From Gracilinanus agilis (Eukaryota), in NCBI RefSeq assembly GCF_016433145.1, contig NC_058133.1, positions 520,915,806 through 520,979,805 on the forward strand: a stretch of 64,000 bases of DNA, in the 5' to 3' direction. The notes under the pieces were generated by a model. That model ran no database searches. It saw only the letters and a list, made by a program, of their open reading frames with translations, and had not been told where the DNA came from. Positions 2,736 through 18,248 of this stretch are shown piece by piece; position 1 is the first letter of the stretch; the number at the start of each line of letters is the position of its first letter. A program made the position numbers and the translations under genes.

Positions 2736-4330
2736 ATGGAAACTATCTGGTATTTTACTACAATGATACCTTTTTTCTATATGGTAATCATGCCAGATTA
2801 CGTACATGATTTTTTTGAGTTCCAAGTTTTATTACCAATCACTGATATTACCAAATGTGGGGCTCTGTCTTATTTGCCTCTCCTGATTCTTCTAGTAGGA
2901 TGCCTCTACCAATTCAAGAAGATTGTGGTGGCAATTTTTAAAAGGCTTAATGTTACTGGCTGGTTAATCTTAGGGAACAGTGAAATAAAGCAACTAGTTT
3001 TAACCTTGCAAGCAAAGCTTGAGCAAGTAGAGGCTCAGTACTTAGAACTTACCAAAGCCAAAGGGGCAATGTCAAGGGTGGTACCACAAGGAGTAATTAG
3101 AACGGGTGGTGCTGAAAAACAAGTACTTCTCAGCTACAACTAGAGGAACAAGCTTTAGAAAATCTCCTGCAGCAATGTTTCCTCTCCGAGATGTACCTTT
3201 TATATCACCTGACCTGGGAATTCTGCATATTAAATCCCATAAACACTTCACACAAGTTGATTTGAATGCAATGAAAAAGAGAACCCCAAAGTTTGACAAT
3301 GAATCAGTGGGAGTGATTAAGGAGTTTAAGAGAGTAACTGGGATTTTTGATACAGATTTTTGGGATTTTGAAATTCTTATGGGTGAATGACTAAGTAGGA
3401 GAGAAAAACAACAATTTATTAAACAAACACATAATAATGATGATCTCACTCCATGGCCCACTGAAAATTCTGAACTCGAGATGAATTCTGTTGAAGCATA
3501 CAGATATTTGGGGAAAGCTAGGGAATCTATTCTAGATGTCATGAAAGCAAATTCCAAAAGCCTTGGCACATGGTCAAAATTTGAAAGATTAAGGTAGGAA
3601 GCAGGGAAAACACCAGCAACATTTTTGGACAGATTTATAGAATGTGGGGAGAAATAGCTGGAAATGGACATTTTATCTGATGATAACATAGGCCACATTA
3701 GAAGACAATTTCTTTTTTTTTTTTTTGGAGAAACAATTGCCTGAACTGGTATTCTATGGGTCTGGAGGAACTTAAAAGAAAGGCTTGCTATATTTGTCAT
3801 GCAGATAAAGACAGACAGGCAGAGGACAAAAATGACTTGATTAATGACTTAAGAAAGCAATTAAAAGAAGTAAACCAAAAGCTTAAGGAAAGTGAGATAA
3901 AGGAGATCAAAGCAGTGGCAGCTTTAAGATCTTATAGACCTGCTAAAAGTGACTACAATTCCAGAACAAATAGGTAAAATCCCCCTAAATGTTATTTATG
4001 TAACCATGTTGGACCGTGTCCAACCATGTTGGACCATGTAACCATGTGTTGGACACATGATGAGAGAGTGTCATTTTAGAGGACATTTCTATGAGCAAAG
4101 GTTTAGGGGAAACCTTGGCAATAACTTTAACAACAATGTTTATAGGTAGAGTTCATATAACCATAATAATAACAGGTTTAACAATACATACCAAAGACAA
4201 GATAGTAACTGCTATAATCATGGTTGTTGCCATGAGACCAAACAAGCCCCAGACTTGCAAACAATGTAAGAATATATGAAAACTGGAACTTGTCCTAAAT
4301 ACTCTCAAGTAGCAGGAGGCAATTGCCAAA
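2736..4330 (+). pseudogene. gag: ERV-A gag remnant (hydrophobic N-terminus, CA, coiled coil, one zinc knuckle, N-rich tail)
   Basis: ORF fragments 2718-3143, 3106-3390 and 3756-3977; knuckle CYLCNHVG(H)MMREC at 3990-4071. Confidence 0.85.
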
Positions 4331-4659
4331 AAGGGGATATGGAAAAGGGGGCATGTACATTATGAAGGTGTGCATAGGATAGCACAGTTTTAGGAAACAA
4401 AAATAAAGATTGTGGGAAGGAATACATAGATACTATAACAACAAGTGAGAGCAATGGAATAGAAAATGAAGGAAGGTGCTGTGAAAAAAGTAAATCCTGG
4501 CAAAATGATAGGAACTATTAAACCCTGGCAAAATAGTGATGCAGAAGTAAATGGGGAGGTGGAATGTGACAGTCAGGAATTAGAGATGCAATTTCCCAGA
4601 TCCAACTATTTTAGCAACTATTATAACTACACATTCACCACCAAACAGCACAGAACCAC

Positions 4660-7600
4660 ATGTTACATTAAATGTTGGGGGGCATATTTATGATTGCTTA
4701 GTTGACATGGGTGCAACTAAAAGCATTTTGCAAACATCCCCTGAGGAATGTAAGGCTGGAGGAAGTTTGGAAATAGTGGGAGTAACTGGGAGACCACAAA
4801 GGGTAAAGAAGTTACAACCCAAAATATTATCATTAGGTCCTTTATCTGTGGAATACTCATCTCTTTTAATGCCCAACTCACCAACGAATTTATTTGGCAG
4901 GGATCTTTTATGTAAATTAAGAGCCACCATACAATGTACACCATCTCAAGATATCTCTTTACAACTTCCTGAAAAATCCCTTGAAATTTTTCCAGTGTTA
5001 TTCTTAGACAAAGTTGAGGCAAAAGGAGAAATGTGTACAATTTATCCAATTCCAGACGATATTCCAAACAGTCTATGGGCTTCATCTTCTACAGACGTAG
5101 TCTTAACCTAAATCAGCAATACCAGTTAAAGACTAGAGGGGGTCCTCCACCTTGTATTCCCCAATATCCTTTAAGTAAAGCAGTAGAGGGCATAAGATCA
5201 ATTATAGAATCATTGTTAGAGCAAGGCATTATAGTACCATGTATTTTAGAATGTAATACTCCTATACTAACAATTAAAAAACCAAAGTTGATGAAAATTG
5301 GAAACCGTGTTACAGATTTGTCCAAGATTTAAGGGCTATAAATGATTATGTTATAAAACCACTCCCAATAGTACCATCTACAGCTACAATTATCTCCTCC
5401 ATACCCAGTTGTGCACAATATTTCACAGTGGTAGACTTTTCTTTTTTTTTCCCCGTTCCCCATACATAAGGACTACCAAAAGATTTTTGCTTTCACCTGG
5501 CAGGGAAGAAGTTTCTGTTGGAACCGTTTGCCCCAAGGGTATTTCAAAAGTCCATTTCTCTTTTTGCAAATCCTAAATAATGATCTAGAAACTATCCATT
5601 TTAAAGACAGCAAATTAGTACATGACATTCTTTTAGCCTCTCCAAATTAAAAAAATTTGTCTTAGGAGATAGCAAGTTTCTTTTATGTGAATTATGTAAG
5701 AGAAGACATAAGATCTCTGAAACCAAGATGCAATGGTGTCTACAAAGAGTTGAATACCTAGGATTCATTCTATCTGGAGGTTCTAGGAGTTATTTCCCAA
5801 AATGTATAGCCAACATCCAAAAACTCAGAGCCACAAGAACCAAAAGACAGTTAAGAGCCATACTTGGGATGATGGGTTTCTGTAGACAAGGGATCCTTGG
5901 GTATAGCGAATTAACCAAATCTCACTAATTTAACCAAAAACACAGAACCAGAACCACTCAACTCAAATCAGAACATTTGCAAGCCATAACAAAACTTAAG
6001 GAAGCAATTCTTTGCGCATCAGCCCTTGGGATACCAGATTTTGAAAAACCGTTTATGTTATTTGTGCATGAGCATAAAGGGATAGCTTCAGGAGTGTTAA
6101 TAAAGACCCTAGGACCAAATCACCATCCCATAGCATATTATAATGCAAACTAAACCCTATCGCAGTTGGTATCACTCCATGCTTGTGTGGCATTGCTGCC
6201 GCAGCACTATTGATACAGAAATCTGCAGATCTAGTTCTCAGGTATCCTTTAACAATCTTTTGCCCTCACCAAATAGAAGCCCTTATACTTAAATATTGTA
6301 CTCAGGCTTTCCTGGATCAACATATAGCCAAATATGACATAATTCTTCTTGGGAATGAAAATATACAAATTAAAAGGTGTAGTGTGTTGAACCCAGCAAC
6401 ACTCGTCCCAACTTACCAACTAATGGAGAACCATTGCATGAATGCACAACAGTTGTAGAGTTAGCAGAATAACCAAGAAAAGATTTAAAAGACAGACCAA
6501 TTGACAATCTTGATCTTGTGCTTTTTATTGATGGTTCTTCATATATGCAAAATAGGATATGGTACATGGTACATGGGTGCAGCAGTAGTAACATAATTTG
6601 AGACCTTACAGTATGCTCCTCTACCCAAGAATATGAGTGCTCAAGGGGCAGAGTTAGTGGCTCTTAACACACACTTGTAACTTAGCTGAAAGCAAGAGGG
6701 CTAATGTTATGAGTTCTCGATATGCCATGTGACCGGGTCAATTTGGAAACAGAGAGGGTTTATTACATCTGCAGGAAAACAGCTCATGTTGGGATTATAA
6801 CAGAGCTACTGACAGCTATGTTAAACCTAAAGAATTGGCCATAATACATTGCAACAGTCATTCTTTTAGTAAAGATGCAATGTCTTAGGGTAATAATCAA
6901 GCTGATTTTGCAGCTAGGTACACAGCACAAAATGCACCAGCTTGCATAATGAGTTTGTCCATGATAGAGTCAACAGATCTTAAAAAAACATATTTGGACA
7001 CTGAAATTCAGACATGCAAACAGAAATTTGGAGCTAGGGAAGACAATGGAATTTGGGTAGCATCCACAGGAAAGCCTATTTTACCAAAACATTTTTACAA
7101 CTATCTATGTCAAGCTATCCATAATGTTAGAGGGAAATCAGAGAGAAAGCAGGAAGTGCCAAAGCAGAGGCAGAGATAGAATTCCAGAACTCTGGTGACA
7201 GTGACTCTGCTGGGACAGTTGGGTTTTGGACTTGCTCTCTGGAGTAAGAGACAGTATATGTGGACTTCTCCAACAAGCCTTTTACCTTCTAGGAAGTGGC
7301 TGAGTTTGGTTTAAACTCCACAGGTGGACTGTGTGAGTAAAATCCTTACTCCCCTTCGTATTGGAGCTATGCCTGCTACTGCTGTGATTCTAATGGACTC
7401 CTGCCAAACCCAGAGAACAACTGTTTGTGAGACATCTCCCTTTTTGATTCAGTGGACCTATGTATCTTCCAGCTTTTCCTTACTCAGTTACAACGGGGGG
7501 GGGGGGGGGGGGGGATATGGTGGTATTCTGGTTAGGAGATAGTACAGGTAGCTGGGATCTGTAGGTAGAGATTCAGTGTAGTAAAGATCTATTTAAACCT

Positions 7601-7940
7601 ATTGGACTTTGGCGGGAAGAATTAGTGTTAATACCCAGGTAGATCATCCCACTCCCCCTTCCCCTACCTGTCCCAGTTTAAAATAAAACTCTGATTTACA
7701 ACAGATTGGTAACTTGTCAGTTTCTCCCTGGAAGCCTTCCCAAACCCAGAATTCTGATAACTGGCAGTGAGGACTATTTCATCTAAGTGTCTAGAAAACC
7801 ACCTAACCTTAACCTTACCTACTATATTTATTTTTTACTTCAATAAGGGTCATTTTGGGTCATAAGCTATCACTGATACAATAAAAAGAGTATGGATTAC
7901 ACCTGGGATGAGCACAAATGCTAATCAAGTCTCCCACACA
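4660..7940 (+). pseudogene. pol: ERV-A pro-pol remnant
   Basis: Protease 4707-5111, RT about 5130-6100 with the YVDD motif damaged (KLVHDILLAS near 5615), RNase H about 6500-6930, integrase N-terminus split by a solo LTR. Confidence 0.88.
7125..7842 (+). mobile_element. Solo LTR nested in the ERV-A integrase
   Basis: TG...CA ends, 4-bp TSD ATAA (7121-7124, 7843-7846), AATAAA near 7683. Removing it restores ATC CAT AAG GGT CAT TTT GGG (IHKGHFG). Confidence 0.92.
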
Positions 7941-9219: not shown

Positions 9220-9508
9220 TCAATCTATCAACATTTATTAAGCACCTATGTGCCAGACCCTATGATACCAGGAGGCAAAGACAGGCCCTGCCCGCAAGGA
9301 GCTTACAGTCTAGTAGGAGAGAAAACATGTAGACAACTATACTATGTGCAAACAAGATAAGTGCAAGATAAAATTAAAATATTTAATAGAAGGAAGGCAC
9401 CTGAAACCTCATGTTCTGATGAGACTTTAGCTGAGACTTAAAGGAAGCCAAGGAGGCTAATACTTAGAGGGGAGGGAGAGAGTATTTTGGGTGACAGCCA
9501 GAGGAAAT
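9220..9508 (-). mobile_element. L2 LINE 3' end, interrupted by ERV-B and continuing at 17024-17330
   Basis: caacatttattaagcacctatgtgccag is the reverse complement of an L2 3' terminus. Purine-rich L2-like sequence resumes after the ERV-B TSD. Confidence 0.7.
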
Positions 9509-10463
9509 TATAAGAGTTAATTAGTTAATTGGATTAATTAGAGAACAAGGATGATCATAAGAAGGTCTCCAGCTAAGAAAAGAGTTTCTAAGGTTCCTTT
9601 CAGCAGCCAGAGAATTCTGAGTAGGTCAGAGGTAGAGAATTCCCAGAGACCCTAGGAAAAACAGTTGGTCAATGGATCACTAAATCTCTAGATCTTCCTT
9701 GTTGAGAAAGGGTGTCTAGGGAGCTGCTTCTGAGCAATTTGGAACATTTGGTGGTAGATTACTTGGGAAACATCCTGATATCGAAGAAGGTTAGAAAAGT
9801 GACTGATAGACAGAAGAGTGGCTGTGCGGTTCTGTAGAACTCCACCAGAGGGGAGTAGAGAGCAACAACTAGGAGAGAGGCTGACTTTGAATCTCTCAGA
9901 GTGAATCCTCTGAGTCTGGAGAGAGAGAAAAAACTATATTGAATCTTAAAAGCTAAAATATAAGGAAAAGAGTTTAAGTGTAATATAATTATAATAGCTT
10001 AGTAAGATAGATTTATTTAATAGACAGAAAGAATAGTTAAGTTAGCCCTGAATTTCCAGAGAAGTCGCCTCATGAGAGACAGATTTGGGAATTGGGGTTT
10101 AATTAGATTTTTTTATATTAGGGTAAATAAAAATTTCCTACCTTTCTATTTTCCTTTTCCTATCCCCGTATCTTTCATAGTTTAAAAAATTTTTTTAATA
10201 AAATATAGCTTAAAATATAGTTTTAAAATGCATGTGTTTGTTTATTATTTTATATATTATATATATGTTATATATATATAAATCACAACTCTAATAAATA
10301 AATGAATAAAAATAAAAGTGTTTTTTATAACCAACCTCCAGTCAATTACCTCAACTGCTAACGAACCATCTCCTCAACTGCCAACAACTGAATCTCCATA
10401 TTAGCTATATTCTATCAATATTTATTGACATCTATAAATACTAGGTCAATATTCCCCATGAAA
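9509..10463 (+). repeat. ERV-B 5' LTR (955 bp)
   Basis: Both ends align with 16841-17023; followed by ag-TGGC; several AATAAA motifs. Confidence 0.88.
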
Positions 10464-10537
10464 AGTGGCAAATCAATGCTCCTCTACCAGGACAAGAAAC
10501 TGCAAAGAGATACATCTAAAAGGACTTAATAGTCAAA

Positions 10538-12290
10538 ATGATATTCAACAACATAAACCTAGGGAATGTGACCTAGGTTTTTACAAGAAAGATTCCTGGG
10601 TATATTAGGGATAGCTCAGTCCCACAGCCAATACTAAACATACTTTGTCTTACACTATTTGATATTTTAAAATTGACACCATTGGGGAGCTGTGGAATAC
10701 TCTTCATTTTCATGATTACGGTGTTCATTTATTACATCCTAAATCTAAAAGCACTCCAGAGAAAGAAACAACAAAAAGAAAAGCAATTTGACATGCGCTT
10801 CGAATATCTAGAAAACATAATGAAGCAAGGAAAATTAATGGAGCAATATTTTCGAGAAACAAAATTAGAGAGGGAAACCAAGGAACTGAATAACAATATT
10901 GGAGGTTTTTTCCCACTACTAGAGGTCCCAGTACTAACCCCAGGGTACCAATTCATAAATGTTAGACATCATAAAGGATTTACACAAACACTTATATAGA
11001 TAGCTTTAAGAAGGGAACTCCTTCATTTGAGGAAGAACCTGTGGCAGTTACCGAACAATTTTTTTTTTTAAACCCTTGTACTTCGGTGTATTGTCTTATA
11101 GATGGAAGATTGGTAAGGGTGGGCAATGGGGGTCAAGTGACTTGCCCAGGGTCACACAGCTGGGAAGTGGCTGAGGCTGGGTTTGAACCTAGGACCTCCT
11201 GTCTCTAGGCCTGACTCTCACTCCACTGAGCTATCCAGCTGCCCCCAGTTACCGAACAATTTGAGAAAATAGTTAAGCAATTTGATTCTGATTATCTCGA
11301 TTTTGAAATTTTACTAGATGAATTATTGGCAAAGAGGGAGAAAGAAAAAATTGTTAGAGAAACTAGTGAATGGCCACTTGTAAATCCAAAATGAAAAATT
11401 AATTCTGAAGGAGGTTATGAACAACTGGTTAAAGCGAGGCAGGCAGTGATTAAAACAATGAGAGTGCTCTGATAGGCAAGGTAACTGGACTAAATTTGAG
11501 CAGGTGAGACAGGACAGTGGGAAGATACCTTCAGCTTTTATGGATAGGCTTATAGACCTAGGGGAAAGGTACATTGGACTTGACGTCTCCAAAGCATGTG
11601 ATGTGAGGCACTAACATAGACAATTTGTTAAAAATACGTGTGTGGTGGTGAGAAATTACTTTAAACAACAATGCCCTGATTGAAATGAAATGGAATTAGA
11701 TGAATTGAAATGTATAGCAAAATACATTTAAAATGCTGATAAGGACAAACATGAAGAAAAGAATAATGAGTTAGTTGAAGAACTGAGACAAGAGAAAAGA
11801 TCTGAAAATAAAACTTAGCAAAGTAGAAAAACAGGGAAAAAAACCAAAACATAGCTACTGTCATAGGCAATACAATGCTCCACAAAGAAATTACAATGAT
11901 CAGGGCCCAAGGTGCTACATGTGTGGCCATAGGGGTCATTTAATGAGAAATTGTAGATCCTGGGAATGAGTTTTCAGGCAAAATGGAGGCTACCTCTCAA
12001 ATAATTTTAGAAACAATGGAAATTTTTATTGGGGAAACTGATACAACTATGGGTTTAGAAATGAAGGCAGGTACAACAACCGAGGCAATGCATACAATGG
12101 ATTTAGGTACAAATATCAAGATATAAGAAATGGCTTTCCAAATGGCTATCCAAATGCATATAATTACCAGGGTGATAACCAGGCTGAGGTAATGCAAACG
12201 TATATAAGGAATGGTGAATGCCCAAAATATTCACAAATTGTCAGTGCTAATACTCAGAAGCAAGAATCCCAGAAAGCTCAATCATAAAAG
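10538..12290 (+). pseudogene. gag: ERV-B gag remnant
   Basis: In-frame ATG at 10538 (one TAG at 10574), hydrophobic helix, FPLLEVP, MHR-like WTKFEQVRQDSGKIPSAFMDRL, knuckle CYMCGHRGHLMRNC at 11913-11954. Confidence 0.87.
11062..11245 (-). mobile_element. Young SINE inserted in ERV-B gag
   Basis: 17-bp TSD cagttaccgaacaattt (11045-11061, 11246-11262). Confidence 0.95.
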
Positions 12291-12469
12291 TTTACTAGGG
12301 GAGGTGGAATTTAGATACTAAAAATGAAAGCTTTGAAATATGGAATTTGGGGATTGAAGCAAATAATCTAAGAGAGTGAAGGACAGTATAACAAATATAG
12401 GTTTCCTGATCCAGAAGTCTTAACACCAGTGGTGCCAGTGGTACTCTTCACTCTCCCCTGAAGAGTACA

Positions 12470-15400
12470 GAATCCCATGTCACATTGAAAATTGGAAATA
12501 GTATTTACAACTGCTTGCTGGACACGGGATCATCTAGATCTGTATTGATAAATTCCCCAGATGAACAGTACTATATGGTGGACTCTATGAAGGTTGTAGA
12601 AATTTCTGGGACACCTTTTGAGGTGAAAAAGCTGCCACTCAGGATGGTTTCTCTGGGTCCACTGAGTGTAGAGCATTCATTTTTATTGATGCCAAACTCC
12701 TCTGTATATCTTTTGGGAAGAAATTTATTGTGAAAATTGACAGCAACAATAGTGTGTACCCTAGCTGGTGATATTTCTCTGTAATTGCCAGAGGAATCAC
12801 TAAATGTGTTCCCAGCATTATTCTTAGAAGATCATGAAATGCAAAAGACATAGATTTATGAAATTCCTACAGATATTCCAGAAGCATTGTGGGCCACATC
12901 ATTTACAGATGTAAGTTTACTAAAATCAGCTTTGCCAGCAAAAATCACAACTAGAGGTGGTCTAGCTCCATCAATAAGACAGTATCCCTTGTCAAAAGAA
13001 GTCATAGAGGGCATAACACCAGTGACAGAGTCCTTGGTAAAGCAAAAGATTATAATCCCTTGCAAGTCTGAGTACAACACGCCAGTCCTGCCAATCAAGA
13101 AGCTTATAAGGCAAATGAGAAAACAGTTTATAGATTTGTGCAAGATCTCAGAGCCATAAACAACGATGTAGTAAAGAGGCATCCAGTAGTCCCCAGTTCA
13201 TCAACAATAATTTCTTCAATACCAAGCAATGCAAGATATTTCACAGTGGTGGACCTATGTTCTACATTCTTTTCTATCCCAATTCACAAAGATTCCCAGA
13301 AGATTTGTGTTTATGTGGAAGGGCTCTCAATATATCTGATATGTCATCTTCCACAAGGGTTCATAGAAAGCCCTATGGTCTTCTCCCAAATTTTAACACA
13401 AGACCTGGCCAAAATAGACTTCCAAGAGAGCACACTTATCCACTTTGTTGATGACTTATTAGCTTCTCCCTTGGTTAAGGCATGTCAAAGGGATAGTAAA
13501 CACCTTCTGCTAGAGTTATTTAAAAGGGAACATAAAATAACAAAAGCAAAAATACAGTAGTGCCTCCCTAAAGTAGAATATCTAAGATTTGTACTAGCAG
13601 AAGGGTCAAGATACATCTCAGAGAAAAGGATTGCAAACATTCAAAAATTAACAGCACCAAGAATAAAGAAGCAGCTAAGAGCCATATTGGGAACAACTGG
13701 GTTCTGTAGGCAGTGAATACCTTGTTATGGAGAGATCACCAAGCCCCTTACAGAACTAACAAGAGATACAGTAACGGAGCAACTGAAACTAAGTGCTGAA
13801 CATCTAGCAGCAATAGCAAAATTGAAACAAGCCATCTTGTCAGCACCTGCATTGGGAATACCAAATTACAATAAGCCTTTTGTGTTGCATGTCCATGAAA
13901 GGAAAGCTGTTGCCTCTGGTGTGCTTGTACAGTCTGGGTCCACTGAAAAGGCCAAAAGCTTTCTATTCAGCTCAGCTAGATCCTATTGCAGCCGAAGCTC
14001 CTCTGTGCCGCAGAGGAGAAGCTATCACTGCTTTGTTAGTCACCAAAGCTGCAGACTTGGTATTAGTATGTCCACTTACAATTATGTGTATGTCCTCATG
14101 AAGTAGAAACATTGCTGCTGAGAAATGGAACCCAAGCTTTCTCAGATCAGTGATTAACTAGATATGAGATCACTCTGCCAGGCAATGACAACATCACATT
14201 AAAGAGATTCATATCCATAATCCTGCCACTCTATTGCCAGATTTGCCACCTAATGGAGAACCTCTACATGACTGAAAAAGTGGTACAAATTGCAGAAAGA
14301 CCTCAGGAAAACTTATCTTGACACACCTTTAGACAATGCTGATCTCATACTTTTCACTGATGGCTCATCTTTCATAAAGGATGGCATACAGCACACCAGA
14401 GCTACTATGGTTACAGAGTTTGAAACAGTTTGGTATACAGCACTCCCATCAAATCTGAGTGTACAAGCAGCTGAGTTGATTGCCCTAAAATAAGCCTGTT
14501 TAATATCAAGGGATAAAGATGCTACAATCTACAAGGACTCTATGCATTTGGCATTTAGCACATCATGAGAAGTCTGGTTACAGTATGGGTTCTTAACATC
14601 TTTAGGAAAGAACCAATGCAAAGATCATTAATGAACTTTTAATTGCTCTGCAATTGCTAAGGAGGTTAGCTGTCGTTCACTGTCCAGTGTATACTGGGAA
14701 TGCTGACTTTGTTGCAAGAGGGAACCATAGAGCAGATGTACAGCAAATCTCTCCTTCATAAGTGAAACAGATTTGGCAAAAGCTTATAATGAAAAAGAAG
14801 TTAAAAAGTGGAGATAAAATTTTAAAGCACAGCAAAAGAACAGTATTTGGATTGCATCTTATGGAAAGCCAATAATACCAAGAGCTTTTTACAGCCAAAT
14901 CTGTCGAGCTATACACAGGAAAGGTCATTTTGGCACACAAACCATAGTGGATAGCTCCAGTATTACAAATATAGCTTGTAAGACCTGTTCATCTTGTCAA
15001 GTATGCCAACAGTACTACCAGTCTGTTTTCAGGCAAAAAGCATTTGGAAGAAGACCATTAGCTTTCACACCTTTTGAGCATTTGCAGATAGACTTCATAT
15101 CGATGCCAAAAGCAGGAAACTAAATACTGCTTAGTTATAGTGGATCAATTGACAAGGTAGCCAGAAGTTTTTCCATCTAATAAGAATACTGCAAATTTTG
15201 TGGCAAAGGTGTTATTAAAAGAAATCATACCCAAATTTGGCCTGCCAGGAAGGATAGATTCTGACCAGGGGACACACTTCACTGATTCAGTATTATAACA
15301 AATATATGAAAAGTTAGGAATAACACCAAAATTTCATGTACCTTATTATCCACAGAGTTCTGGGCAAGTGGAAAGACTGAACAGAGAAATCAAGACCATG

Positions 15401-15860
15401 ATAGGAAAGTTATGCACAGAAACACATTTAAAATGGCCAGAGGCTTTGCCTTTAGCCTTGTTTTACTTAAGAACCAGACCCAGAGGTGACCAGCACATTT
15501 CACCATATGAAATGATATTTGGTCACCCTCCATTATAATCTAAGACTTTCAGCCCTGTGTATAATTCCATGTTAGCAGAGTACATAAGAGTTACAAACAA
15601 GAATCAGAGAGTTGCAAAAATTAGGAACACTAGTGCAAGCAGACCCTATTGATTTCACACTGCATGATATAAACCCTGGTGATACAGTCTATATCAAAAA
15701 CTTTAATAGAAAAGGATGTAGACAGCCTGCTTGGGAAGGGCTATATCAAGCTACACCAAGTGCTGTAAAAATAGGAGAAAAGTCAAGCTGGATTCATTGA
15801 TCTCATGTAAAGAAAATTACAACAGTAGAAAATACTTCAGGAGAAGACGGTAATCTAGAA
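12470..15860 (+). pseudogene. pol: ERV-B pro-pol remnant (PR, RT, RNase H, IN)
   Basis: CLLDTGSSRSVL; IRQYPLSKE...YNTPVLPIKK; HLPQGF; HFVDDLL; LFTDGSSF; HRKGHFG...CSSC; LQIDFISMPK, DSDQGTHFT, PQSSGQVERLNREIK; WEGLYQ...SWIH. Stops and frameshifts throughout. Confidence 0.93.
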
Positions 15861-16059
15861 TGAGATGAAGATCAACACAACAATGGCAGAACTGCAATGG
15901 ACAAGGACAACCACAATGTCAATGGAACAAAGACTACTACCACACAACAATGACAACACAATTGGACAATGGTATTGCTAGACACTATTTCAAGGACATT
16001 GGACAAGGATCACTACAGTCAAGACTGAAGATTGAAGACAGGATTTAAGTTTTGAATCT

Positions 16060-16364
16060 TGTTACAACAGAGGTTTGTAAGCGAAGATATGTGGTAGGTA
16101 TAAAGTTTAGGGTTTAAGAATAATTCTTATTAATATAATACCCAGAATGTTAAACAAGGATATTACAAAATTCTAACTAGCAAATAGTCTAGCTCGTTAA
16201 GCTAGATTTCTTACTCTGCCCTCTTTCTTATTTCTTTACTTCCACTCTTTCCCTCTATTTTATAAATAAACTGCTATAAAAGGCATTTGAGACTTGAGAT
16301 ATTTTAATTTCACAGACCACATTTCTCATTTATTTAAACCAACCTTACTTTTTTAACCCTTACA
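16060..16364 (+). mobile_element. Partial solo LTR nested in the ERV-B 3' region
   Basis: 3' end AATAAA...cccttaca resembles the LTRs at 33918 and 58966. Possible TSD ATCT/TTCT with one mismatch; 5' boundary uncertain. Confidence 0.6.
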
Positions 16365-16840
16365 TTCTGACAGACCATGAAGGTTATGACAGTAGCCCTC
16401 AATTTTCTTGACTTTTCCTTCACTTTGCTACTATCTCAAGTCAGCTTTTCTTTGTAGCTGGTTCTACAACCCACAGCTGCGAAATAAAGGTTAAGTCCAA
16501 ACATTTTTTCTTTTTGTTTTCCTTAAAATAAATAGAACACAGTTGTTTTTATCTTAGGACAACTTTAAAGTATTATTTTTAGGCAGAATTTTGTTTTCTA
16601 TAATAGTATAGGTGGAATAGTGTGTTATTTTGTTATTGCAATTGTTTGCATTTGAATTTTTGTAAATGTAATGTGATTTGCATTTTGCAGAATTTTCCTT
16701 ACTTTCTCTTATTCTTTTTTCTGTCTCTCTCTAGCATAGTAAAATAGTTTAGATTAGTTTTAGAATAAGAAGAGTTAGGTGTTTGCTTCATTTGAGAAAG
16801 TCATGACAGACATTTCAATGAAGCATGGGAGGGGAGTGGA

Positions 16841-17023
16841 TATAAGAGTTATTTAGTTAATTGGATTAATTAGAGAACAAGATTGATCATAAGGTCTCCA
16901 GCCAATTGCCTCAACTACTAATCCAATCATCTCCTCAACTGCCAACAACTGAATATCCATATTAGCTATATTTATCAGTATTTATTCATATCTATAAACA
17001 CTAGGTCAATATTCCCCATAACA
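16841..17023 (+). repeat. ERV-B 3' LTR, internally deleted (183 bp)
   Basis: Equals the first about 60 nt and last about 125 nt of the 5' LTR, joined at CTCCAG. Confidence 0.9.
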
Positions 17024-18248
17024 AAATAAAGGTCGGAGGATCTTTCTGTAGAACAGCCAGGAGGCCAGGGTCACTGGATGGAGATGAAGGTGTAACTAGC
17101 AGAGAAGAGGGGCAGGTTGTGAAGAGCTCTGAAGGCCAAATAGAGCATTTGGTAGTTGCTCCAGGAGAAAGCTATTTTGGTGGCTGAATAGAGGAAATTA
17201 CAGAGGAGGGAAAGACTAGAGGCAAGTGGGCCAGCAATAGGCTACTCCAGTAGCATGAGGTGATGAGGGCCTGTGCCGGGGGTGGCAGTGCCAGAGGAGA
17301 GAAGCTACAGAACTGAAATTGATAGACTTCAGCAACAACCAACACCTATTACCAACCAACAGACACCCCTCAGCCTAAAGGCTGAGAGACTTGAATTCTA
17401 ATTTAGCCTCAGATTCGTATAACTGTGTGACCCCAGAAAAGTCGCTTCTCCCACCTAATTCCAGGGTTGTTCTGAGGATCAGATGAGGTAATGTTTCCCA
17501 AGTGCTTAGCATATCACCTGGTACTACACAAATATTAGCTTCATTATCATCCTCATCACAGATGGATTGGCAAACCATTCTACGTGAAGCAGCAACGTCC
17601 TCTGAGCAAAAGCTGCCTGAGCTAGCTCCAGCCCTTGTCCCCCAGTGCCCCAGGCATGGCAGCACTCAGAATCCCAGCCCAAATTACCAGACCTGCATCC
17701 TTCCAGTGCCATAGCCATCACAAAAAGAAGGACTTTTGTCATTCTGTCTCCATGCATATGTCTTTGTCTCCTTAGCAACCACCACAAAGGACTCTCCCAC
17801 CCACCCAAACTGATGTTCTCAAAACCCCAATCCTTGCCCCTACAGCAATGGGGGGCAGATTTCTCAATGGAAGTGATGTCAGAAGGCATGCTGCCACCCA
17901 TCTAGGGTTGACTAGGCCCAGGGAAATTTCCCACATGCATTGTCTCCTCTACTTAGAAAAGAAGCTCCTTGAAACCAAGGACTTTCAGACCTTTCCCATA
18001 CTATCCTTTATTCAATGCAGGAGCCACCCTTCACTTGGATGCCAAATGAGAGCCTGAGAAGACAAAAACGACCAGAAAGCCTAGAGCTGCCATGACCTCC
18101 ATTCAGGAGCCTGGGCCCTTTCCTATTTTCATACAAATACTACTGAGCAGTTGAGAAGGGGCCACAAAACTGAACTGTAAATGGCCCAAATCCCAACTAG
18201 AATAAATCTACAATGACCTCTTTCACTGCATTCCCCCAAAATACCCAC

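Follow-up and report, generated by a model that had tools for sequence, protein, structure and literature searches.

The stretch analysed here, called the window, comprises 64,000 nucleotides of the Gracilinanus agilis genome (NCBI RefSeq assembly GCF_016433145.1, contig NC_058133.1, positions 520,915,806 to 520,979,805, forward strand) and contains an endogenous retrovirus (ERV) at its positions 9509-17023. The element is a class I ERV with two long terminal repeats (LTRs) and a 4-bp target-site duplication (TSD), and its Gag opens with a hydrophobic block, predicted to be a membrane anchor (Table 1). The hydrophobic N-terminus of Gag is real and family-wide. Furthermore, sequence comparison supports the view that this conserved block, together with a predicted coiled coil, takes the place of the matrix domain and is read in frame with the capsid.

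Most of the layout given in a first-pass annotation of this DNA was confirmed, namely the LTRs on both ends with the TSD, the coil running in frame into the capsid start (open frame 10577-10996), and a distance of about 1 kb between the end of pol and the polypurine tract (PPT), which is 963 nt from the pol stop TGA at 15861-15863. A nested LTR had also been proposed in this spacer and is only partly supported. The 16197-16366 part indeed resembles the LTR 3' ends of relatives, but 16065-16180 is collinear with relatives and no TSD was seen; the pol-to-PPT spacer of relatives is likewise 1.0-1.1 kb. The annotated Gag start at ATG 10538, without a glycine in second position, was found as described, but in this copy the TAG at 10574-10576 separates it from the hydrophobic frame.

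The window element is a dead copy, because a short interspersed element (SINE) and several frameshifts break capsid and pol. Its 3' LTR lacks the 769 bp equivalent to 9574-10342 of the 5' LTR, and 14 of the 183 sites shared by the LTR pair differ. With a neutral rate of 2-3 per billion per year, these few sites would place the insertion roughly 13-19 million years ago. The degenerate primer-binding site (PBS), which we take to be of tRNA-Arg type, starts 72 nt before the gag ATG. The median of this distance among relatives is also 72 nt (PBS found in 10/44 copies), versus about 770 nt in the young clade described below.

Table 1. Parts of the class I ERV and their positions in the window
Feature	Position	Strand	Remarks
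Left TSD, AAAT	9505-9508		right copy at 17024-17027
Whole element	9509-17023	+	class I ERV, two LTRs and 4-bp TSD
5' LTR	9509-10463	+	955 bp, family-typical length; 3' LTR of relative L113 matches along its length
PBS	10466-10483	+	degenerate
Gag N-terminal segment	10538-10630	+	ATG without Gly2; N-x-T sequon 10565-10573; in-frame TAG 10574-10576
Hydrophobic block	10631-10747	+	predicted membrane anchor; contains 19-mer 10691-10747
Basic patch and long helix	10748-10912	+	predicted coiled coil; ends at likely protease site before capsid proline
Capsid	10913-11737	+	MLV p30-like; interrupted by frameshifts, stops, SINE
SINE in capsid	about 11059-11250	-	own target duplication
Zinc knuckle and Gag tail	11913-12287	+	single CCHC knuckle, then N/G/R/Y-rich tail
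pol	12288-15863	+	protease, reverse transcriptase, RNase H, integrase with MLV-type C-terminus; interrupted by stops, frameshifts
3' region	15864-16826	+	without env; LTR-like relic at about 16076-16366
PPT	16827-16836	+	
3' LTR	16841-17023	+	internal deletion of 769 bp

The assignment to class I made in the first pass holds. The reverse transcriptase (RT) of the window copy scores 72 bits against RT of the murine leukemia virus (MLV) type versus 31 for foamy virus, 28 for 7sr6 and 24 for human immunodeficiency virus 2 (HIV-2), which is a similarity ranking and not a reference tree, and the unbroken pol of relative L054 scores 544 bits versus 161 for foamy virus. The capsid matches MLV p30 structures and Gag_p30. 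Together with this p30-type capsid, one CCHC knuckle and an MLV-type integrase C-terminus were found, although the knuckle and MLVIN_C matches of the window copy lie just below the Pfam cut-offs. A gag and pol in one frame split by a stop and a 4-bp TSD are class I features; this frame arrangement was read in relatives L092 and L054, the frames of the window copy being broken. The element does not have the canonical Gammaretrovirus layout of myristoylated matrix, late-domain region and env with immunosuppressive domain and CX6CC motif. Canonical features were seen in its sister clade, where Gag_MA matched weakly in 3/8 rows and env remnants occur.

The Gag tail after the zinc knuckle (11955-12287 in the window; also in loci L057 and L092 and proteins P0006 and P0148 of our library) is of low complexity and rich in N, R, G and Y. 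A tail of this composition is found again in other clades and might help to bind RNA or form condensates. A second member of the hydrophobic-Gag lineage, more diverged and broken, lies at 2736-7934 (+) of the window, with a hydrophobic N-terminus (profile E 0.003), a capsid at 3169-3714 and pol from 4590. On the minus strand, at about 21900-50250, there are exons of a long coiled-coil host gene, by eye presumably pericentrin-like; three of its frames gave no Pfam match.

Conservation of the hydrophobic Gag N-terminus

With the 140-aa frame of the window copy as query, matches were obtained in all of the best 150 loci scored out of 864 candidates. Forty of the matched loci, taken as 10-kb stretches, have the same layout as the window element, and the natural copy L011 has an unbroken frame of 372 aa from the equivalent Met into the capsid. 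In this group, the old clade, the best 19-residue hydropathy is at least 1.6 in 33/33 aligned stop-free natural rows (median 2.18; 19-54% identity to the first row), versus 0/22 matrix-type N-termini. The 33/33 count is partly built in, because a hydrophobic query served to pick the rows and each was trimmed around its window of highest hydropathy. 

The family block has about 40 residues and reads as a hydrophobic run, an acidic position (88% charged), a Pro/Gly turn, a second hydrophobic run, a basic position (79% charged) and a third hydrophobic run, with about 18 mostly uncharged residues between the acidic and the basic position. In the window copy, the acidic position is at 10661 and the basic one, at 10718, is Thr. 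Thus, the 19-residue stretch noticed at 10691-10747 is present (Kyte-Doolittle (KD) 19-mer value of 2.30), but such a clean 19-mer is atypical of the family. The transmembrane (TM) helix proposed in the first-pass annotation stands as a conserved hydrophobic block, but is too simple a description for the old clade, where internal charges are conserved and a hairpin is possible. A Met stands at the gag start position in 16/28 copies, a sequon near residue 12 occurs in 17/28 old copies, and K/R are more numerous on the C-side than on the N-side of the block in 28/29 old and 12/12 young rows. The membrane anchor was predicted from KD hydropathy and charge counts.

The AlphaFold model of an old-clade Gag contains one long helix at residues 32-111 (predicted local distance difference test, pLDDT, 70-96 over 41-110) followed by the capsid beta-hairpin, and no helical-bundle matrix appears in it (predicted template modelling score, pTM, 0.28). 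A Foldseek search with the modelled Gag returned nothing at E ≤ 0.001; the top row was MLV capsid with E 0.65.

The block also bears marks of coding constraint. Over 28 copies, the Gag frame has 33 stops in 2100 codons, whereas the remaining two frames, of equal length, have 250 and 84 and are also less hydrophobic. In hydrophobic columns, 74% of 423 variants remain hydrophobic versus 50% expected. The pairwise ratio of nonsynonymous to synonymous divergence (dN/dS) was 0.27 for residues 1-31 and 0.38 for residues 32-73, values which are rough because synonymous sites are near saturation. These results indicate that the block is coding and under purifying selection across diverged copies (dN/dS about 0.3-0.4). 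Related proteins stand in RefSeq as uncharacterised Monodelphis products; among ten library proteins checked, six bear a name, in each case one from Monodelphis domestica, and one more shares a cluster with a Monodelphis protein.

Matrix, env and the related clades

By capsid similarity, a sister clade with matrix and env was reached (L052 and 20 more loci). A Met-Gly start is present in 11/22 matrix-type rows, the matrix profile made from this clade matches the N-termini of 10/148 library Gags, and its env remnants are numerous (the best 150 of 150 scored match, of 1191 candidates). Loci L071, L072, L077-L080, L084, L086, L088 and L089 of the matrix type keep gag and only the very end of integrase, and part or most of their env is gone. 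In the 3' region of L092 and of matrix-type loci, about 0.5 kb ahead of the actual PPT, there is an internal PPT-like tract with LTR-like sequence behind it, which suggests LTR replacement.

Further clades carry hydrophobic anchors of their own. The young clade (182 matches) has a different and cleaner stretch of 22 uncharged residues (KD 2.5-2.9) and a Pro-rich linker. Its Gag frames are unbroken and near 600 aa long, paired LTRs reach 99% identity, and the 3' region corresponds to the one in the matrix/env clade after excision of env. The type C anchor (hydropathy 2.2-2.7), first met in Monodelphis proteins P0008 and P0148, is present in the G. agilis genome too and has another 3' junction. 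Two anchor types also occur in Monodelphis proteins. Family D (L161-L170 and an insertion in L080; 3641 first-look candidates) is mostly gag-only, LTR-bounded and probably non-autonomous, with an extended hydrophobic N-terminus, and is nested inside the old clade.

The absence of room for a matrix or p12, noted in the first pass, was borne out by a median of 55 residues between block and capsid. A hidden downstream Met-Gly matrix is hardly compatible with the rows, as Met-Gly was found between block and capsid in 3/23 of them. The matrix profile matched in 0/51 old, 0/24 young and 0/20 type C/D loci. The late-domain motifs PPxY/PTAP were found in 0/50 old loci in any frame and in 0/12 young rows in frame, and in the matrix frame of 7/22 matrix-type sister loci. 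PTAP strings seen in the young clade (15/15, any frame) were rejected as a late domain, being out of frame. Strings resembling YPx(1-3)L occur in 5/50 old loci in any frame and are weak.

Because a Pfam env search gave only unrelated gamma-type env on class II-like pol, an env profile was made from the TM subunit of the sister clade; it also detects unrelated gamma-type env at E about 1e-5. This profile has no match in the window, in line with the env-less reading of the element. Among loci that contain the end of integrase and extend at least 1.4 kb further, an env remnant was found past integrase in 0/48 (0/10 old, 0/20 integrase-anchored, 0/13 young, 0/4 type C and 0/1 type D), while 11/12 matrix-type loci were positive in the control. 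Only 4/20 integrase-anchored loci show the Gag N-terminus within the stretch examined. Conversely, 0/20 env-anchored loci carry any anchor type and 4/20 match the matrix profile. Thus, the lack of env belongs to the lineage and is not a loss of this single copy. Among the gamma-type env matches, L106, L107 and L109 are young elements in which pol is class II-like and the gamma-type env frame is open, and 78/78 scored env matches are this strong. L108 (G000:C1:265579000-265588999) is a tandem array with a period of 5827 bp and five units, each with an open gamma-type env frame; the units are 100% identical where compared, and the array may be real or an assembly artefact.

In the RT tree, the old, young and C rows each form one clade at 100/100, with the matrix/env rows at the base; the root depends on a distant class II outgroup. 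Loci L032 and L073 (RT taken as that of nested elements) and, in one tree, nine near-identical young copies were left out, and the later trees are hand-picked subsets of 36 and 48 rows. The N-termini of the three anchor clades cannot be aligned with each other (profile probabilities 0.1-3.6%), with matrix or with env, and their 3' junctions differ. It is likely that a matrix-plus-env ancestor gave rise to the anchor types by two or three separate swaps. Two results weigh against repeated origins: approximately unbiased (AU) tests do not reject a single origin (p 0.064, 0.197), and the capsid tree, with the matrix clade on one side of a branch, allows it. A single origin would mean that the anchor was exchanged at least twice. 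With a matrix-plus-env sister clade and two more anchor clades, the case for convergence is stronger than first proposed.

The source of the anchors was sought in several ways. A derivation of the young N-terminus from the env membrane region, which it resembles by eye, was not supported (profile probability 1.8%, E 0.027), and an old N-terminus from matrix or env had a profile probability of at most 0.1%. DNA profiles of the young N-terminus and env, run both ways, were without result (best E 0.77 and 0.25, in unrelated places). Three word-index protein searches found nothing, and in the ESM Atlas the full Gag gave only Gag-like clusters under 0.9 and the young N-terminus unrelated phage proteins. 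The AlphaFold model of a young Gag was too weak for use (pLDDT 40), and the pairwise dN/dS of 0.88 for the young capsid is unreliable, since some rows continue out of frame.

Possible roles of the hydrophobic block

We propose, with a probability of about 0.55, that the block is a signal-anchor for the endoplasmic reticulum (ER) with the capsid in the cytosol, which would lead to assembly and budding on inner membranes like those of the mouse intracisternal A-particle (IAP). The signal recognition particle (SRP) would take the nascent Gag together with its own RNA to the ER, and this could explain how the element copes with a leader of 72 nt. The N-terminus would be luminal and the capsid-nucleocapsid part cytosolic, as the positive-inside rule and the N-side sequon of many copies suggest, and the long helix would stand in for matrix as spacer and oligomer. 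Particles would then assemble and bud at inner membranes. A protease cut before the capsid proline would free the core, so that reverse transcription and integration could follow without leaving the cell.

Several points weigh against the ER signal-anchor. Anchoring and topology are predicted here from KD hydropathy and charge counts, the model of Gag has a pTM of 0.28 with an empty fold search at E ≤ 0.001, and the near-saturated synonymous sites make the dN/dS of the block rough. The sequon is missing in 11/28 old and 12/12 young copies. Matrix-type L077-L079 and L084 keep their matrix though most of env is deleted, so env decay does not require an anchor swap, and a single origin is allowed by the trees, as described above. 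Moreover, with two conserved charges inside it and a Pro/Gly turn, the block of the old clade may not cross the membrane once.

The same pattern of helix, Pro/Gly turn and helix, with its conserved acidic and basic positions, would fit a hairpin or amphipathic anchor in the cytosolic leaflet of the ER, nuclear envelope or lipid droplets, on which Gag would assemble with or without budding. The sequon is not universal, and IAP Gag was reported in vitro at the ER membrane without lumen entry (PMC3945221). On the other hand, the charged positions of the old clade lie about 18 mostly uncharged residues apart, the young clade has the clean stretch given above (22 uncharged residues with KD 2.5-2.9), and type C scores 2.2-2.7. 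We regard a hairpin as unlikely, although it deserves serious attention.

It is rather doubtful that the anchor brings Gag to the plasma membrane, where env-less particles would borrow the Env of the sister clade. The numerous sister env remnants would agree with such a loan, and many sister copies are without pol, so that complementation in trans must have occurred in the group. However, PPxY/PTAP, present in the matrix clade, is absent from the 50 old and 12 young Gags, and the YPx(1-3)L-like strings, in any frame, are weak.

We give little credence to a third reading, in which the N-terminal module is a fusogen similar to FAST proteins or insect sORF2, fused to the capsid and serving env-independent spread from cell to cell; maturation would free a membrane protein of about 125 residues in the old clade. 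Equally improbable is that opossum class I ERVs repeatedly swapped matrix and env for one such FAST-like fusogen fused to the capsid. If true, a vertebrate retrovirus lineage would have moved between cells without env, and the fast-changing N-terminus of the young clade would be an exposed domain. The short N-side domain, hydrophobic segment, aromatic end and polybasic patch fit most of the insect sORF2 screen as reported in a preprint (bioRxiv 2025.03.14.642691). From the description of a single N-out TM segment with a polybasic patch, the basic C-side was found here, the topology being predicted. In the young clade, 44.5 shared amino-acid changes per 101 sites fall in the first 42 residues; the corresponding figures are 7 per 65 for the TM and 16 per 159 for the coil, and the first 42 residues thus change about four times faster. 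However, their ratio of nonsynonymous to synonymous changes (N/S) of 1.49 comes from 7.5 synonymous changes and does not clearly exceed 1, and pairwise dN/dS values are scattered over 0.78-2.42; relaxed selection therefore fits equally well. In addition, the module is not a separate small open reading frame (ORF), the motif MGxxxS/T is found in only 2/33, 0/12, 0/10 and 0/10 rows, and many signal-anchors share the features of the proposed fusogen.

The reading of the hydrophobic part as a glyco-Gag-like or pre-gag extension that accompanies an ordinary matrix-Gag is close to refuted. One library protein (P0076) has a hydrophobic stretch and then a Met-Gly matrix-like start, but no in-frame extension upstream of an intact matrix-Gag was found in the element, and the median of 55 residues between block and capsid, the rare Met-Gly (3/23 rows) and the unmatched matrix profile (0/51 old, 0/24 young, 0/20 C/D) leave hardly any place for one. 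The charge bias is also opposite to the type II layout described in PMC3423011. A relic origin of the block from such a leader after deletion of the matrix is possible. Finally, the idea that the stretch is decayed or AT-rich non-coding sequence in a copy that lost env after insertion, which the age, the breaks and the stop between ATG and block in the window copy might favour, is refuted by stop depletion, dN/dS below 1, less hydrophobic other frames, unbroken natural frames and the absence of env from 48/48 loci.

Comparison with known systems

The mouse IAP, a class II element derived from IAPE, is reported to have lost env and gained an ER signal (PMC4643047, PMC8096092, PMC3945221), the first of these sources relaying the result of Ribet. 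As in the lineage described here, env was lost, the Gag N-terminus was altered and an env-bearing sister exists; the ER targeting via SRP is reported for IAP. Two features of the IAP family, env loss and a hydrophobic Gag N-terminus, were found, and the betaretrovirus-like pol of that family was not. Unlike in IAP, RT and capsid are of class I here, and matrix is fully replaced by the block and the long helix, which have no detectable homology to the matrix of the sister clade. IAP keeps a modified matrix. The lineage is not IAP but likely works like it, and its origin was probably repeated. Particles of MuERV-L, which is env-less as well and belongs to class III, are reported to accumulate in the ER (PMC5930517).

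FcERV-gamma6 of the cat and MLERV1_3 of the bat are, as here, class I elements with env deleted that spread by retrotransposition, but they are described as keeping matrix under relaxed selection, and no replacement is reported in what PMC4643047 says of them. MEBrv 3 of dasyurid marsupials also lost env and continued to amplify; it is of class II, and the words 'transmembrane' and 'matrix' are absent from the main text of the report (PMC11334065). The glyco-Gag of MLV is a membrane-inserted Gag in a class I virus, but it is a CUG-started extra product of type II with the matrix retained, whereas in the lineage described here an anchor takes the place of matrix and the opposite topology is predicted from the charges. 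FAST proteins and insect sORF2, the latter reported from env-less LTR elements, share the short N-side domain, hydrophobic segment and polybasic patch; they are described as separate small ORFs, mostly myristoylated, whereas here the module is fused to the capsid and the motif is lacking. A search of the literature, with Repbase, supplements and four key papers outside it, found no description of a Gag anchored in membranes for class I ERVs, whether of marsupials or of other hosts.

Matrix is regarded as a standard component of retroviral Gag, and it is kept in the env-less class I elements of the literature cited. Here, a class I lineage was amplified for a long time without matrix and with a hydrophobic anchor instead, alongside a sister with matrix and env. 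Opossum genomes are reported to consist of 7-10% ERVs (PMC11334065, PMC13709493), and the anchor-type lineage may bear on this high load. If the anchor is an ER signal, assembly on inner membranes would have been reached in all three ERV classes, by IAP, by MuERV-L and by this lineage, and perhaps three times in one host family. It would make testable whether the retargeting of Gag is a repeatable step from retrovirus to retrotransposon, and why it is helpful.

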